A stretch of 64,000 bases of DNA, from assembly GCA_038868995.1 (NCBI GenBank), contig JAWCRZ010000005.1:4632-68631 (forward strand), in the 5' to 3' direction. This DNA comes from Candidatus Woesearchaeota archaeon. Lineage in GTDB: Archaea > Nanobdellota > Nanobdellia > Woesearchaeales > ARS49. The position numbers and the translations under genes were made by a program. How positions within the stretch are numbered: position 1 is the stretch's first letter; each line of letters begins with the position of its first letter. The notes under the pieces were generated by a model. It was not told the origin of the DNA. It was given only the letters and a program-made list of their open reading frames with translations, and ran no database searches. Positions 2,411 to 51,538 of this stretch are shown one piece after another.

Positions 2411-3859
2411 TCACAAGCCAGCCAAATAATCCTTGATAAGCATTGTAGCACGTACGTCATCCTCGTTATAATCAAGAATTCTTTTCAGCAACTCACTTTC
2501 CTTTGTTTCCAAAAACTGCAAATAAAGAACAATGCTTTCCTGCGCATCAGCCATACCCCTGTACTTGAAGCCCAAAAATTTGCTTACTTCCTTCAATGAC
2601 ATCGTCATCGTAGGGAAGATGACATGCTTCCTGACCAATGCCAGCACATCAACCATATTATCAAGAACATGAGAAAGGTCAAGCTTGTATTTCTGGGCAA
2701 GCGCAGCAATATGCGTCCTTTCATACGGCCCATAATGGTATATTGGCGCTCCAGGGAACTTTCTTATAAAAGCGAGAAAATTGTGAAGCATCCTGCCCTC
2801 ATCTGCAAGCGTTTCAGCAACAAACGGACGGAAATGAACACCTTCCCTGTCCTTTACAAGAAGCCCTATCAAATAGTCCGTCTTAACCATCCCTTCCTCT
2901 GTCTCCAGCTCATCAGTGCCTTCAAAATCAAGAAACAGTTCCACATCAGCTTTTGGCAGCTTGGGCTTTGAAAGAATAATGGGCTTTTTGTCAACAAATG
3001 CCTGCGCGTACAATCTTATCTTTTTCAGCGTGGCATCAGGAATGTCAACCTCAAAAGGCTGCGTGGCAAGCTGGCGCACTGTAAAAATTCCTGCATCATT
3101 CAACTTCTTCTTCAAAGCAGGTCCGACATGCGGCAGGATTGAAACATCATCAGCAGCCACTGCCAGCTTGTTGCAATACGCCTCCCAAGGCCACTTGCAC
3201 GCCTTTGCAGTTGGAGAGATTTTTTTGCCATTAAAAATTTCCCTTATGTCAGCAAGGGCAAGCATCAATGACTCCTTGTAATCATCATAAGAATATTCCG
3301 TCTCCTCATTTTCCCTATTTATAAGATAAAATTTTGAAGGAGTATAACCCTGCACCCTGCCCAGCAGATAAGTGTAGAACGCGGTCTGCATTATATATTC
3401 ATGCTTGATATTCTTCGCGCTCTTGATTTCCTTGACAACATAATAATAGTTTCCAAACACGCTGCTATGGTCGTTCCTCCTTTCCAAAACATCAAGAATT
3501 CCATACATGTCCTCCTGCAGGAAAAACAAAGGCGCACCAGTTATTGCTTTTACACCCTTTTTGCACTCATCAAGAACCTGCCTGAAACCTGTCTCAAAAG
3601 ACAAAATGGGAATTTCAACAGCATCCCTGAAAAGTTTTGTACGCACTTCCTTCTCGTGCTGAATTCCGCGCTCGAACAGCAAATGCATATACCTGCTCTC
3701 CGGCTCGCGCTCCTCAGGAGGCGCAAAAGCATCGCACCAAACCAAAAACGGGCTGATGCAGTACTTTAGTACAGTATGCCCGGTAATGGTGAATTTGGAA
3801 CGGCGCTTTCCGGCCAGACACTGCTCAAACAGCTCCATAACACCGGCGCTATACAACAC
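2411..3859 (-). CDS. RecB-family nuclease, TM0106-like (PD-(D/E)xK half plus RNase-H-like exonuclease half)
   Basis: 482-aa ORF with motifs LDVLERR...YYYVVKEIKSAK, LFLDFEGTD and YHYGPYERTHI, typical of this family as I recall it. Confidence 0.65.
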   Translation of the reverse strand: MLYSAGVMELFEQCLAGKRRSKFTITGHTVLKYCISPFLVWCDAFAPPEEREPESRYMHLLFERGIQHEKEVRTKLFRDAVEIPILSFETGFRQVLDECKKGVKAITGAPLFFLQEDMYGILDVLERRNDHSSVFGNYYYVVKEIKSAKNIKHEYIMQTAFYTYLLGRVQGYTPSKFYLINRENEETEYSYDDYKESLMLALADIREIFNGKKISPTAKACKWPWEAYCNKLAVAADDVSILPHVGPALKKKLNDAGIFTVRQLATQPFEVDIPDATLKKIRLYAQAFVDKKPIILSKPKLPKADVELFLDFEGTDELETEEGMVKTDYLIGLLVKDREGVHFRPFVAETLADEGRMLHNFLAFIRKFPGAPIYHYGPYERTHIAALAQKYKLDLSHVLDNMVDVLALVRKHVIFPTMTMSLKEVSKFLGFKYRGMADAQESIVLYLQFLETKESELLKRILDYNEDDVRATMLIKDYLAGL

Positions 3860-3903: not shown

Positions 3904-4590
3904 ATGAATCACCATTTGCTGCTGTTTTTGTGCATTGGCATTGTCATATTTTTCGCATTAATGCACGTTGAGATGCTGTCACTGACTGGCGCTGCGATTG
4001 TCAAAGATTACACAGGCAAGGAATCGTATGCAATGAACATGCACGCCACTGTCTTGAAATTTCTTCAAGTAGAAGGCATAACATACCCGCATCACGTATG
4101 CACTGAAATCGCGAAAGAACTTTATTTGAACATCGCCCAGCCCTCTGCTGTAGTTACAGCCGGCTTTGCAAGCTCAGGGCCAGAGCGCGTGGCAAGCATC
4201 AACTTTGTCACGGAATGGGACGATGTTTACGGCACCATCGATATTATTCATGGCAAAGAAATACTTTCTGATTACGATGCAGATACAATGATGAGCATCA
4301 GCGTAGAATCGATAGTCCGTCTGCCAAAAAGGGCGCGTGCAAACTTTTTCAGCCTGGACTTGTTTGGCTTCAGCAGGGACAGGTTTTACATTACAGAAGG
4401 AAAGTTTTCAACTCCGAGCTTTGACTGCTACTTTGGCAGAGAAAACGGCGAGTTAATGTGCGACTGCGACGCACACCCGATTGCAGGCATAGAAATAGCG
4501 GGCATAACCGGAGTAAGAGCACCCCTTGATATACGTGCAAAGCTGCAGGAAGAATTGGAGATTTCTAAACTTCAGCGTCAGAAGGGTTAA
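3904..4590 (+). CDS. hypothetical protein with N-terminal membrane anchor
   Basis: 228-aa ORF with N-terminal hydrophobic helix LLLFLCIGIVIFFALM. The stop codon TAA (4588-4590) lies inside MITE copy 1. Confidence 0.55.
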   Translation: MNHHLLLFLCIGIVIFFALMHVEMLSLTGAAIVKDYTGKESYAMNMHATVLKFLQVEGITYPHHVCTEIAKELYLNIAQPSAVVTAGFASSGPERVASINFVTEWDDVYGTIDIIHGKEILSDYDADTMMSISVESIVRLPKRARANFFSLDLFGFSRDRFYITEGKFSTPSFDCYFGRENGELMCDCDAHPIAGIEIAGITGVRAPLDIRAKLQEELEISKLQRQKG

Positions 4591-4714
4591 GTCAAGTTTC
4601 TGGTGCTAACTTGCCTTGGTCCTCTGGACTCATTTTTCGCAGGTGCGGAGGAGAGAAAAATAAACTCGGCAAAGCCGAGACAGAGAGGCCAGCACCATCA
4701 AGTTGACAGCACCC
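4585..4714 (+). mobile_element. MITE-like element copy 1 (subfamily A, 9-nt deletion variant)
   Basis: 130 bp, GGTTAAGTCAAG...GTTGACAGCACCC, flanked by GTCAGAAG / GCCAGAAG. Confidence 0.85.
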
Positions 4715-4727
4715 GCCAGAAGTAAAC

Positions 4728-4735
4728 TTTAAATA
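4728..4735 (+). promoter_or_regulatory. TATA box (TTTAAATA) for the 4764 gene
   Basis: AT-rich octamer 13 nt after the MITE end and about 29-41 nt before the candidate starts. Confidence 0.5.
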
Positions 4736-5057: not shown

Positions 5058-5295
5058 TGCCAACAACACACATTGAGAATCTCATTCAATTATATCTTGT
5101 TAATGTCTTGTCAATTCGTAATTATCAAAATCTCTTGTAAATCACCATCCCTGAAGATATAGACGCTTCTCTTTAATAGTGTCGGGACATCACGTACACT
5201 GTACGCAAGATGCAAAACCCTTTCAGATGCAAATAATTCACAAAGCACTGCCCATAAAAACAACAGGGCTAATTTCAATGTACCCATGCCAACAG

Positions 5296-5425
5296 GGTTA
5301 AGTCAAGTTTCTGGTGCTAACTTGCCTTGGTCCTCTGGACTCATTTTTCGCAGGTGCAGAGGAGAGAAAAATAAACTCGGCAAAGCCGAGGCAGAGCGGC
5401 CAGCACCATCAAGTTGACAGCACCC
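5296..5425 (+). mobile_element. MITE-like element copy 2 (subfamily A, 9-nt deletion variant)
   Basis: 130 bp with 3 mismatches to copy 1. Perfect 8-bp flanking repeat GCCAACAG. Confidence 0.9.
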
Positions 5426-5438
5426 GCCAACAGTAATA

Positions 5439-5446
5439 TTTATAAA
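5439..5446 (+). promoter_or_regulatory. TATA box (TTTATAAA) for the pilin-like gene
   Basis: Lies 13 nt after the MITE end. GAGGTG Shine-Dalgarno at 5478-5483 and ATG at 5490. Confidence 0.5.
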
Positions 5447-6360: not shown

Positions 6361-6420
6361 TATTCTTCTATGTTTATTCTTAATTTACCATAGAAAACTT
6401 TTCAATGCGCCCTCTTCTCA

Positions 6421-6545
6421 GGTTAAGTCACTCTCTGGTGCTGGCCGCACTGCCTCGACGTTGTCGAGGTGACTTTTCTCTCCCCGCACTTGCAAGGGGA
6501 GAAGAAAAGTCAGGCCAGCGCGGCACCATTAAGTTGACAGCACCC
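6421..6545 (+). mobile_element. MITE-like element copy 3 (subfamily B, interior inverted relative to A)
   Basis: 125 bp, GGTTAAGTCAC...GTTGACAGCACCC, flanked by TCTTCTCA / TCTTCTCG (up to CCCTCTTCTC on both sides). Confidence 0.85.
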
Positions 6546-6557
6546 TCTTCTCGTAAC

Positions 6558-6566
6558 TTTTATAAA
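6558..6566 (+). promoter_or_regulatory. TATA box (TTTTATAAA) for the lipoprotein gene
   Basis: Lies 12 nt after the MITE end and 24 nt before ATG 6590. Confidence 0.5.
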
Positions 6567-21589: not shown

Positions 21590-21602
21590 ATTGCTTCTAT
21601 GG

Positions 21603-21740
21603 GGTTAAGCCAAGTTTCTGGTGCCGGCTGTGGCCATGTCTTCTGGACTCATTTTCCCTCCTCCTCGCAGACTGGAAGAGAAAAAATGACCTCAGCGAAG
21701 TCAAGGCAGAGCTGCCCGCACCATTAAGTTGACTGGACCC
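21603..21740 (+). mobile_element. MITE-like element copy 4 (subfamily A, most diverged)
   Basis: 138 bp, GGTTAAGCCAAG...GTTGACTGGACCC, flanked by TTCTATGG / TTCTATAG. The internal hairpins are partly decayed. Confidence 0.8.
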
Positions 21741-21753
21741 TTCTATAGAAAGC

Positions 21754-21763
21754 TTTAAAAATA
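21754..21763 (+). promoter_or_regulatory. TATA box (TTTAAAAATA) for rpl15e
   Basis: Lies 13 nt after the MITE end and 22 nt before ATG 21785. Confidence 0.55.
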
Positions 21764-35580: not shown

Positions 35581-35768
35581 GCCAGGCTTTCAACATAATC
35601 CCTCATCTCATGCGCTTCATGCCAGTCAATCCTGCCAGCCTGCAGCAAAGTGCTGATAGCCAGCAAATCGTCGCTGAAATTGTTGTATTTCATGCTTATC
35701 ACCTCAAAAATATCAGAGACACGCATTTTTAAATCAATTATGAAGAGCTGATAGAGACCCTGAATCCG

Positions 35769-35907
35769 GGTTAAGTCAAGTTTCTGGTGCTAATTTGTTT
35801 TGGTCCTCTGGACTCATTTTCTCTCCTCCTCGCAGGTGCGGAGGAGAGAAAAATGACCTCGGCAAAGCCGAGGCAGAGCGGCCAGCACCAGAGAGTTGAC
35901 AGCACCC
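35769..35907 (+). mobile_element. MITE-like element copy 5 (subfamily A, most intact)
   Basis: 139 bp, flanked by TGAATCCG / TGAATCCA. Perfect 13-bp hairpin at 35817-35852 and 7-bp hairpin at 35857-35873. Confidence 0.9.
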
Positions 35908-35921
35908 TGAATCCATAAAGC

Positions 35922-35928
35922 TTAAAAG
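35922..35928 (+). promoter_or_regulatory. TATA-like box (TTAAAAG)
   Basis: Lies 14 nt after the MITE end and about 22 nt before ATG 35951. Confidence 0.4.
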
Positions 35929-51360: not shown

Positions 51361-51368
51361 TTTTTAAA
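51361..51368 (-). promoter_or_regulatory. TATA box (TTTAAAAA on the minus strand)
   Basis: Lies 13 nt from the MITE copy 6 end. Confidence 0.5.
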
Positions 51369-51381
51369 GCTTGCGACATAA

Positions 51382-51513
51382 CGGTGCTGTCAACTTAATG
51401 GTGCCGCGGCTGGTCTTTGACTGACTTTTCTTCTCCCCTTGCAAGTGCGGGGAGAGAAAAGTCACCTCGACAACGTCGAGGCGCGCGGCCAGCACCAGAG
51501 GGTTGGCTTAACC
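51382..51513 (-). mobile_element. MITE-like element copy 6 (subfamily B)
   Basis: 132 bp. The reverse complement reads GGTTAAGCCAAC...GTTGACAGCACCG. Flanked by CGACATAA / CGACAAAA. Confidence 0.85.
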
Positions 51514-51538
51514 CGACAAAAAATATTAAAGCAGCCCT

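Follow-up and report, generated by a model that had tools for sequence, protein, structure and literature searches.

A miniature mobile element upstream of promoters in a Woesearchaeota genome, with one sublineage carrying its interior inverted between termini of retained polarity

The stretch of Candidatus Woesearchaeota DNA analysed here, 64 kb in full and called the window below, encodes ribosomal protein L15e, a family B DNA polymerase, an Lhr helicase and very large surface proteins. Its L15e and its 459-aa protein match, at 100% identity, proteins listed by NCBI under Candidatus Woesearchaeota archaeon. One ORF of 1939 aa (38009-43828) combines a subtilase (S8), MopE-like metal-binding motifs and a C-terminal Scabin/NarE-like ADP-ribosyltransferase domain, a mix that is unusual for a DPANN surface protein. 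On the minus strand, 2411-3859 encodes a 482-aa protein in which a clear RNase H-like 3'-5' exonuclease domain (E 1e-29) comes after a weak Cas4-like Pfam match below threshold (E 0.0006; 20.4 bits, cut-off 22.7); this protein adjoins the cluster of the first three element copies listed below and is not recognisable as a transposase. Dispersed through the window are six non-coding copies of one element, each 124-138 nt long, and all inferences on the element are drawn from these n=6 copies in one 64-kb window. They were sorted into two types, A and B, by the orientation of their interior:

Copy c1, 4585-4713, plus strand: type A, 129 nt; 9-bp target duplications at 4576-4584 (CGTCAGAAG) and 4714-4722 (CGCCAGAAG).
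Copy c2, 5296-5424, plus strand: type A, 129 nt, 98% identical to c1; target duplications at 5287-5295 and 5425-5433, (T/C)GCCAACAG.
Copy c3, 6421-6544, plus strand: type B, 124 nt, the locus of the preliminary description; target duplications at 6412-6420 (CTCTTCTCA) and 6545-6553 (CTCTTCTCG).
Copy c4, 21603-21739, plus strand: type A, divergent lineage, 137 nt, 5' of the ribosomal protein L15e gene; target duplications at 21594-21602 and 21740-21748.
Copy c5, 35769-35906, plus strand: type A, 138 nt, the fullest palindrome among the copies; target duplications at 35760-35768 and 35907-35915, CTGAATCC(G/A).
Copy c6, 51383-51513, minus strand: type B, 131 nt; target duplications at 51514-51522 and 51374-51382.

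All six copies begin with GGTTAAG(T/C)C, which abuts the left target duplication, and end with GTTGAC(A/T)G(C/G)ACC, which abuts the right one; the termini read GGTTAAGTCAAG... at the left and ...GTTGACAGCACC at the right. Within each copy the left arm follows the pattern GGTTAAG(T/C)CA...TCTGGTGC and the right arm the pattern GCACCA...GTTGAC(A/T)G(C/G)ACC, and shuffled sequence contained zero matches to the element patterns. The two ends form imperfect 22-nt terminal inverted repeats (left, GGTTAAGTCAAGTTTCTGGTGC; right, as its reverse complement, GGTGCTGTCAACT...TGGTGC) that match at 16-17 of 22 positions when read from outside, and they enclose an interior of ~85-95 nt with two hairpins. 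A single strand folds into a stem, made by pairing of the terminal repeats, with two apical hairpins, and this DNA fold is far more stable than that of shuffled sequences (z = -6.3 for c3, -7.4 for c5 and -6.3 for c6). Covariation in the hairpins amounts to one compensatory pair among only six sequences. No conserved ORF was found in any frame of the copies, and a search with the concatenated translations of the open frames of the element returned no protein homologues.

The element is a MITE (a non-autonomous DNA transposon), given its terminal inverted repeats, its target duplications, its dispersed non-coding copies and the empty sites in relatives. Every copy is flanked by a different 9-bp direct repeat, with eight of nine positions matching in c1-c5 and seven of nine in c6, against a background frequency of 0.002 for a match of at least 7/9 at the same spacing. 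Orthologous sites were empty, with the 9-mer present once, in relatives (L062-L065) for each of the four copies examined: the c1 site in L064, the c2 site also in L064, where it reads CTCCAACAG and then CAATATTTATAAA, the c3 site in L065, where it reads AACTCTTCTCGTAATATTTATAAA, and the c4 site in both L063 (...TGATACCGTCCATACGAAAGCTTTAAAAA) and L062. In the relatives used for these comparisons the L15e proteins are 81-84% identical and the 459-aa proteins 81-82% identical, and ~55 kb of the relatives' DNA yielded no copy of the element. The 9-bp duplication points to a transposase making staggered cuts, a putative enzyme by which the copies would have been moved in trans. A search of the window gave no autonomous element sharing these ends, and its ORFs of at least 150 aa gave no recombinase, invertase, integrase, transposase or Rep-like Pfam domain. 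The left-end pattern GGTTAAGYCAN{3,4}TCTGGTGC was also scanned in genome and metagenome collections, both without this genome, and gave 58 loci, none with the rest of the element; these are single chance matches, mostly within bacterial genes. A viral collection scanned with both end patterns gave nothing, or one chance match, and neither c5, in a BLAST search of plasmids, nor c3, in one of phages, had a match. No Rfam family was reported for the element at gathering thresholds, and the miRNA match that was the only one at E<=1 is spurious (20 bits against a threshold of 70).

The copies share a precise position relative to promoters, the distance from the right end of the element to a TATA octamer being 14 nt in all six:

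TATA box downstream of c1: 4728-4735, plus strand.
TATA box downstream of c2: 5439-5446, plus strand.
TATA box of the 459-aa gene (TTTATAAA): 6559-6566, plus strand, 14 nt past the c3 right end.
TATA box downstream of c4: 21754-21761, plus strand.
TATA box downstream of c5: 35921-35928, plus strand.
TATA box downstream of c6: 51361-51368, minus strand.

The octamers are TTTAAATA, TTTATAAA (two copies), TTTAAAAA (two copies) and CTTAAAAG, and the right target duplication reaches the edge of the BRE, stopping 5 nt short of the box. The boxes belong to real promoters, since the same boxes are present in the relatives that lack the element and they match the promoter consensus found in front of other genes of the window. 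Only 47 such octamers exist in the window (both strands), i.e. 3.7e-4 per oriented position for a pattern that was fitted after the sites had been seen, and at this density the spacing found at six of six copies is not due to chance. Orientation relative to the downstream gene is likewise the same in all six (two-sided probability 1/32).

As the preliminary description had stated, type B (c3, c6) has as its interior the reverse complement of that found in type A (c1, c2, c4, c5); the feature is statistically secure, and the strings that it quoted proved exact (for B, window 6440-6508; for A, the reverse complement of c5, 35769-35906). The match is clearest between 6430-6483 of c3 and 35843-35896 of c5, which are 89% complementary across 54 nt. 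From TGGTGC to GCACCA, type B is 67-69% identical to c1, c2 and c5 when reverse-complemented and 44-51% identical when it is not. After the terminal repeat, type A runs through a spacer, hairpin 2 (TTTTCTCTCC...GGAGAGAAAA), hairpin 1 (CCTCGGCAAAGCCGAGG) and GCAGAGCGGCCA, whereas type B (c3, c6) runs through TGGCCGCACTGC, hairpin 1, hairpin 2 and the spacer; the hairpins come in opposite order and their loops point the other way. It is the loops that decide orientation, because nothing else in the hairpins is asymmetric and the stems look alike both ways. The loop of hairpin 2 is TCGCAGGTGC in type A and GCACTTGCAA in type B, and the reverse complement of the latter, TTGCAAGTGC, matches the A loop at 8 of 10 positions. 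A swap of the two hairpins with no inversion is ruled out, as the loop sequences are reverse-complemented. The termini behave differently from the interior: all six copies keep GGTTAAG at the end away from the promoter and GTTGACAGCACC at the end facing it, again as first described. Two readings that the same description had named as alternatives do not hold. Type B is not a whole-element inversion with mis-assigned ends, since the termini adjoin target duplications in all six copies and the ends are fixed by these duplications together with the empty sites; nor are A and B unrelated families with nothing but their termini in common, since their interiors are homologous once inverted. In c3, the parts of the element are arranged as follows:

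Left terminus: 6421-6429, plus strand, GGTTAAGTC, left-type polarity with TAA at nt 4-6.
Segment that is the reverse complement of the type A interior, by its complementarity to c5: 6430-6522, plus strand, comprising the subterminal block ACTCTCTGGTGC, hairpin 1 (6453-6469) and hairpin 2 (6474-6508).
Right terminal repeat: 6523-6544, plus strand, GCACCATTAAGTTGACAGCACC, right-type polarity.

The extent of the flipped segment differs somewhat from what had been proposed, namely that ~100 bp was flipped between switch points in CTGGTGC...GCACCA while the outer 10-12 nt were kept. The interior is indeed flipped and the termini kept, but what is left unflipped measures ~9 nt at the left and at most 16 nt at the right; the right switch point does appear to lie at GCACCA, while the left one lies further out, at GTCA (nt 7-10). 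In c3 the inverted homology reaches outward to nt 10 through ACTCTCTGGTGC, which is the reverse complement of the right subterminal GCACCAGAGAGT of c5 (the left block of type B, ACTCTC, is the reverse complement of the c5 right block GAGAGT), and only the 9 nt of GGTTAAGTC keep left identity. This left terminus aligns directly with the left ends of type A and not with the reverse complement of their right ends. At the other side, the c3 right end (GCACCATTAAGTTGACAGCACC) matches that of c4 (GCACCATTAAGTTGACTGGACC) at 20 of 22 positions, with an identical subterminal GCACCATTAAGT, and is identical to that of c6; the right subterminal block of type B is the one found at the c4 right end and differs from the left block of type A in reverse complement. 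Left and right are told apart mainly by nt 4-6, GGT-TAA-GTC against GGT-GCT-GTC. Relative to the surviving type A sequences the switch points are asymmetric (nt 7-10 at the left, apparently GCACCA at the right), so a simple reciprocal crossover needs a type A variant that is unsampled. A symmetric crossover within GTCAAC/GTTGAC would give type B exactly, only from an A ancestor with ACTTAA in its left subterminal block; the right switch point appears to be at GCACCA unless the ancestor had this block, and none of the four A copies carries it.

The triplet TAA, which distinguishes the left end, has a further consequence at two sites. At c1 and c3 the upstream gene supplies the duplicated 9-mer with its final three codons, and its TAA stop, directly after them, overlaps the BRE. 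After insertion, the upstream ORF continues into GGT TAA (6421-6426 at c3), adding one glycine before it stops:

GGT TAA of the c1 left terminus: 4585-4590, plus strand, in-frame Gly-stop for the upstream ORF 3904-4590.

This ORF ends ...LQRQKG*, and its original TAA stop is found at 4723-4725, beyond the right target duplication; at c3, the upstream gene of the relatives ends ...NKLFS* and the remnant in the window ...CALFSG*. The left-end TAA takes the place of the displaced stop at c1 and, ancestrally, took it at c3. The rescuing TAA is the very triplet that tells the left end from the right, and the opposite orientation at c1 would lengthen the upstream ORF by 27 residues. Stop rescue offers a selective reason to keep left-end polarity at two of the six sites (c1 and c3); at the other four no upstream ORF reads into the element, so stop-codon selection cannot account for them. 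The gene upstream of c3 has itself been reduced. In L064 and L065 a gene of 184/191 aa lies between a 73-aa gene and the 459-aa gene, of which only the first few bases and the last codons (...CALFSG*) are left beside c3 (window 6361-6420), and L069 is without this gene entirely.

With orientation normalised, the interiors fall into three lineages: c1, c2 and c5, with a mutual identity of 92-96%; c4, 67-72% identical to that group; and c3 and c6, 91% identical to each other (100% over 62 nt), 67-69% identical to c1/c2/c5 and 54% to c4. Each of these lineages has a single orientation, A being (c1,c2,c5) plus c4 and B being (c3,c6), so one inversion on one branch is enough; the lineage tree is unrooted and has three lineages, and repeated flipping is therefore compatible with it too. 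This exact match of orientation to sequence lineage speaks against the two inverted states of the preliminary description in so far as they were meant as switching. The target duplications of c3 and c6 differ, as do their flanks, which implies that type B transposed at least once after the flip. The sequence of c4 is unchanged in an independent Logan assembly of run SRR27730035 (contig L059). Another Logan contig, L067, which carries the 459-aa gene, begins inside c3 where c3 equals c6, an ordinary repeat-induced break that is uninformative on switching.

From these comparisons we infer a single historical event and a mechanism of inversion, as well as the kind of transposase mentioned above. 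Type B probably goes back to an ancestral recombination or template switch within the terminal repeat, inverted once and transposed thereafter, and not to active switching. In its ancestor, the segment from about nt 10 of the left end to the right terminal repeat would have been inverted once, likely through an intramolecular crossover or a replication/repair template switch between the arms of the terminal repeat, while the outermost nucleotides held their places. The rearranged element would then have remained mobile and inserted at at least two sites. Considering the strong fold and its likeness to parvovirus terminal repeats, a hairpin-mediated template switch is reasonable for a one-off event, structures of this sort being where such switching is to be expected, and the flip was probably neutral in an interior that is nearly palindromic. 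The recombination across the inverted repeat suggested in the preliminary description is retained here, a crossover or template switch in the terminal repeat being the simplest origin, and an invertase, one of the two agents that had been suggested for it, or another recombinase, was not found among the ORFs of at least 150 aa in the 64-kb window.

Other origins can be conceived for the two types. In an active and reversible switch, each locus would be flipped by a site-specific invertase or by hairpin transfer (flip/flop) and A and B would be its two states. The inverted repeats (the terminal-repeat arms) that flank the flipped segment would allow it, the stem with two apical hairpins in swapped order is reminiscent of parvovirus flip/flop, and Neisseria Correia elements can invert according to a passage of the review PMC10969869. 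We nevertheless hold such a switch to be very unlikely: with orientation normalised the A and B interiors are still ~31-33% different, whereas within a lineage they are 91-96% identical and in one orientation, window ORFs of at least 150 aa lack recombinase, invertase and Rep-like domains, the interior is without an obvious directional function such as a promoter, and c4 was in the same state in the independent assembly. It could also be that there was no inversion at all and that A and B were derived by separate deletions from an autonomous element whose terminal inverted repeats were long and imperfect, A having kept the interior of the left arm and B that of the right arm, its reverse complement. 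MITEs usually arise through internal deletion of an autonomous element, and such deletions would account for the ends keeping their left and right identity and for the ~68% identity of the A and B interiors, as the arms of an old repeat might show. Against this stands the junction between interior and far terminus, which is the same in both types (c3 has ACTCTCTGGTGCTGGCCGC on its left side and c5 the complement on its right) and is unexpected from two separate deletions; moreover, no autonomous element with these ends turned up in the window or in the genome and metagenome scans (collections without this genome), and we consider this origin unlikely.

The inversion may instead have concerned the whole element, with the outermost nucleotides converted back afterwards by gene conversion, mismatch repair in the terminal stem or selection for TAA. 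Polarity resting mainly on nt 4-6 (TAA vs GCT) would make this easier, the fact that both subterminal blocks of type B are right-type (ACTCTC, ACTTAA) suggests some homogenisation, and a left-end TAA is useful as a replacement stop at c1 and ancestrally at c3. It would however take three adjacent substitutions or a very short conversion tract at both ends, compared to which a single rearrangement is simpler, and the stop-codon selection is not general, as no upstream ORF enters the element at four of the six sites; the scenario seems improbable to us. A more radical doubt is whether the copies are mobile at all: a regulatory unit conserved in front of promoters, or the gene for a structured RNA, could explain the fixed TATA distance of all copies and their strongly structured sequence, with the flanking repeats as a coincidence. 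This is already contradicted by the empty sites, where the orthologous promoters of the relatives lack the element and contain the 9-mer once, and it is at odds with flanking 9-mers that match far over background, with the lack of an Rfam family match and with the position of the copies upstream, not downstream, of promoters. We give it hardly any credence.

Returning to the mobile element with a single old inversion, its fixed position suggests a mechanistic targeting of the promoter edge. The compactness of the genome would explain part of the pattern of position and orientation, not all of it. The intergenic regions of c5 and c6 have space for other insertion positions, and at c1 and c3 a cut 3 nt more downstream would have left the upstream stop codon intact. 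We tentatively propose, as a possibility, an archaeal transposition system that would target the BRE/TATA region (or bound TBP/TFB) with a 9-bp cut ending 5 nt upstream of TATA and in one orientation, reading left and right from the 9 to at most 16 terminal nt, with the in-frame TAA repairing the displaced stop. The decision between left and right would be read from the terminal nucleotides because the B copies, with their flipped interior, are oriented like A. In this respect the earlier proposal that promoter-facing polarity is set by the outermost nucleotides agrees with the orientation of both B copies, yet these are two insertions only and selection for the TAA stop offers an alternative.

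Archaeal MITEs have been described in Sulfolobus, Halobacterium and Haloquadratum (review PMC10969869), and our literature search found no paper on MITEs in Woesearchaeota. Like prokaryotic MITEs, the element is small, non-coding, multicopy and intergenic, has terminal inverted repeats and target duplications, and varies in presence between related genomes; unlike them, it shows one fixed TATA distance and a single orientation for all copies, and in one of its sublineages the interior has been flipped with respect to the element's own ends. The MITE most like it is the Neisseria Correia element (CREE), which has end-sequence variants in every length class and a core with its own direction (PMC2649163), and whose inversion is reported in a passage of review PMC10969869 citing Elbeyioglu 2017. 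Also a MITE, CREE mostly sits just upstream of genes. There is no sequence relationship between the two, however, and CREE is bacterial, has 26-bp repeats and creates sigma-70 promoters. The CREE target duplication is a TA dinucleotide, whereas the element here makes a 9-bp duplication, leaves an archaeal host promoter intact downstream and has an end asymmetry that is constant and not mixed.

Parvovirus (AAV) terminal repeats have flip and flop forms, terminate a linear replicon of single-stranded DNA and flip at each replication round via Rep nicking. They resemble the element in having an outer stem and two internal hairpins, and in that the forms are related by inversion of a palindrome with the outside polarity kept; they differ from it in that the element is chromosomal and intergenic, has 9-bp duplications and no Rep in the window, and holds an orientation fixed per lineage. 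Insertion at a fixed distance from a landmark is known from Tn7 at attTn7 and from yeast Ty3 at Pol III start sites. Common to these and the element are the constant distance to the landmark and a 'safe' position that leaves the neighbouring gene functional, and orientation is constant as in Tn7. The landmark here is instead the archaeal BRE/TATA region, which is present at many genes, the targeting protein or transposase is putative only, and selection in a very compact genome could make part of the pattern. The IS1 family has ends GGnnnTG and an 8-9 bp duplication, and several other IS families also make 8-9 bp duplications; of our two ends, the right one (GGTGCTG) fits GGnnnTG and the left one (GGTTAAG) does not, with a duplication of 9 bp.

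MITEs are ordinary, and one old internal inversion would by itself be a curiosity. A rearranged copy that is mobile and keeps its orientation would mean that the signals by which the transposase recognises and orients the element lie in the outermost nucleotides, the flipped copies serving as a natural deletion/inversion experiment. More striking in our judgement are the parts beyond the inversion, namely where the copies sit at the promoter edge, the single orientation that they share and the stop codon that they carry. If the promoter edge is indeed targeted, DPANN archaea, with their extremely compact genomes, would provide a new case of safe-haven targeting, and the system might help in studying promoter recognition and in building genetic tools for these archaea.

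Insertions unrelated to the element were also seen next to promoters and lend the proposed targeting of the promoter edge some support. Around c2 the target 9-mer is present in triplicate (TGCCAACAA at 5058-5066, TGCCAACAG at 5287-5295 and CGCCAACAG at 5425-5433), and the first two occurrences enclose a single-copy insert of 220 nt (5067-5286), unrelated to the element, which has short inverted ends ACATTGA and holds a 58-aa ORF on the minus strand; this target next to a promoter was apparently hit twice, by different elements. Directly upstream of the L15e TATA box, L060 (9901-9965) and L061 have a hairpin-containing insertion of ~52-63 nt, again unrelated to the element, that is not in L062, the three being strains that share an identical L15e protein yet differ by this insertion. 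Finally, in L064 (2238-2347) a strongly palindromic insertion of 110 nt, AT-flanked and with ends GTCAAG...CGTGAC, separates the BRE from the TATA box at the 459-aa gene, the promoter equivalent to that of c3 in the window, and is absent in L065.
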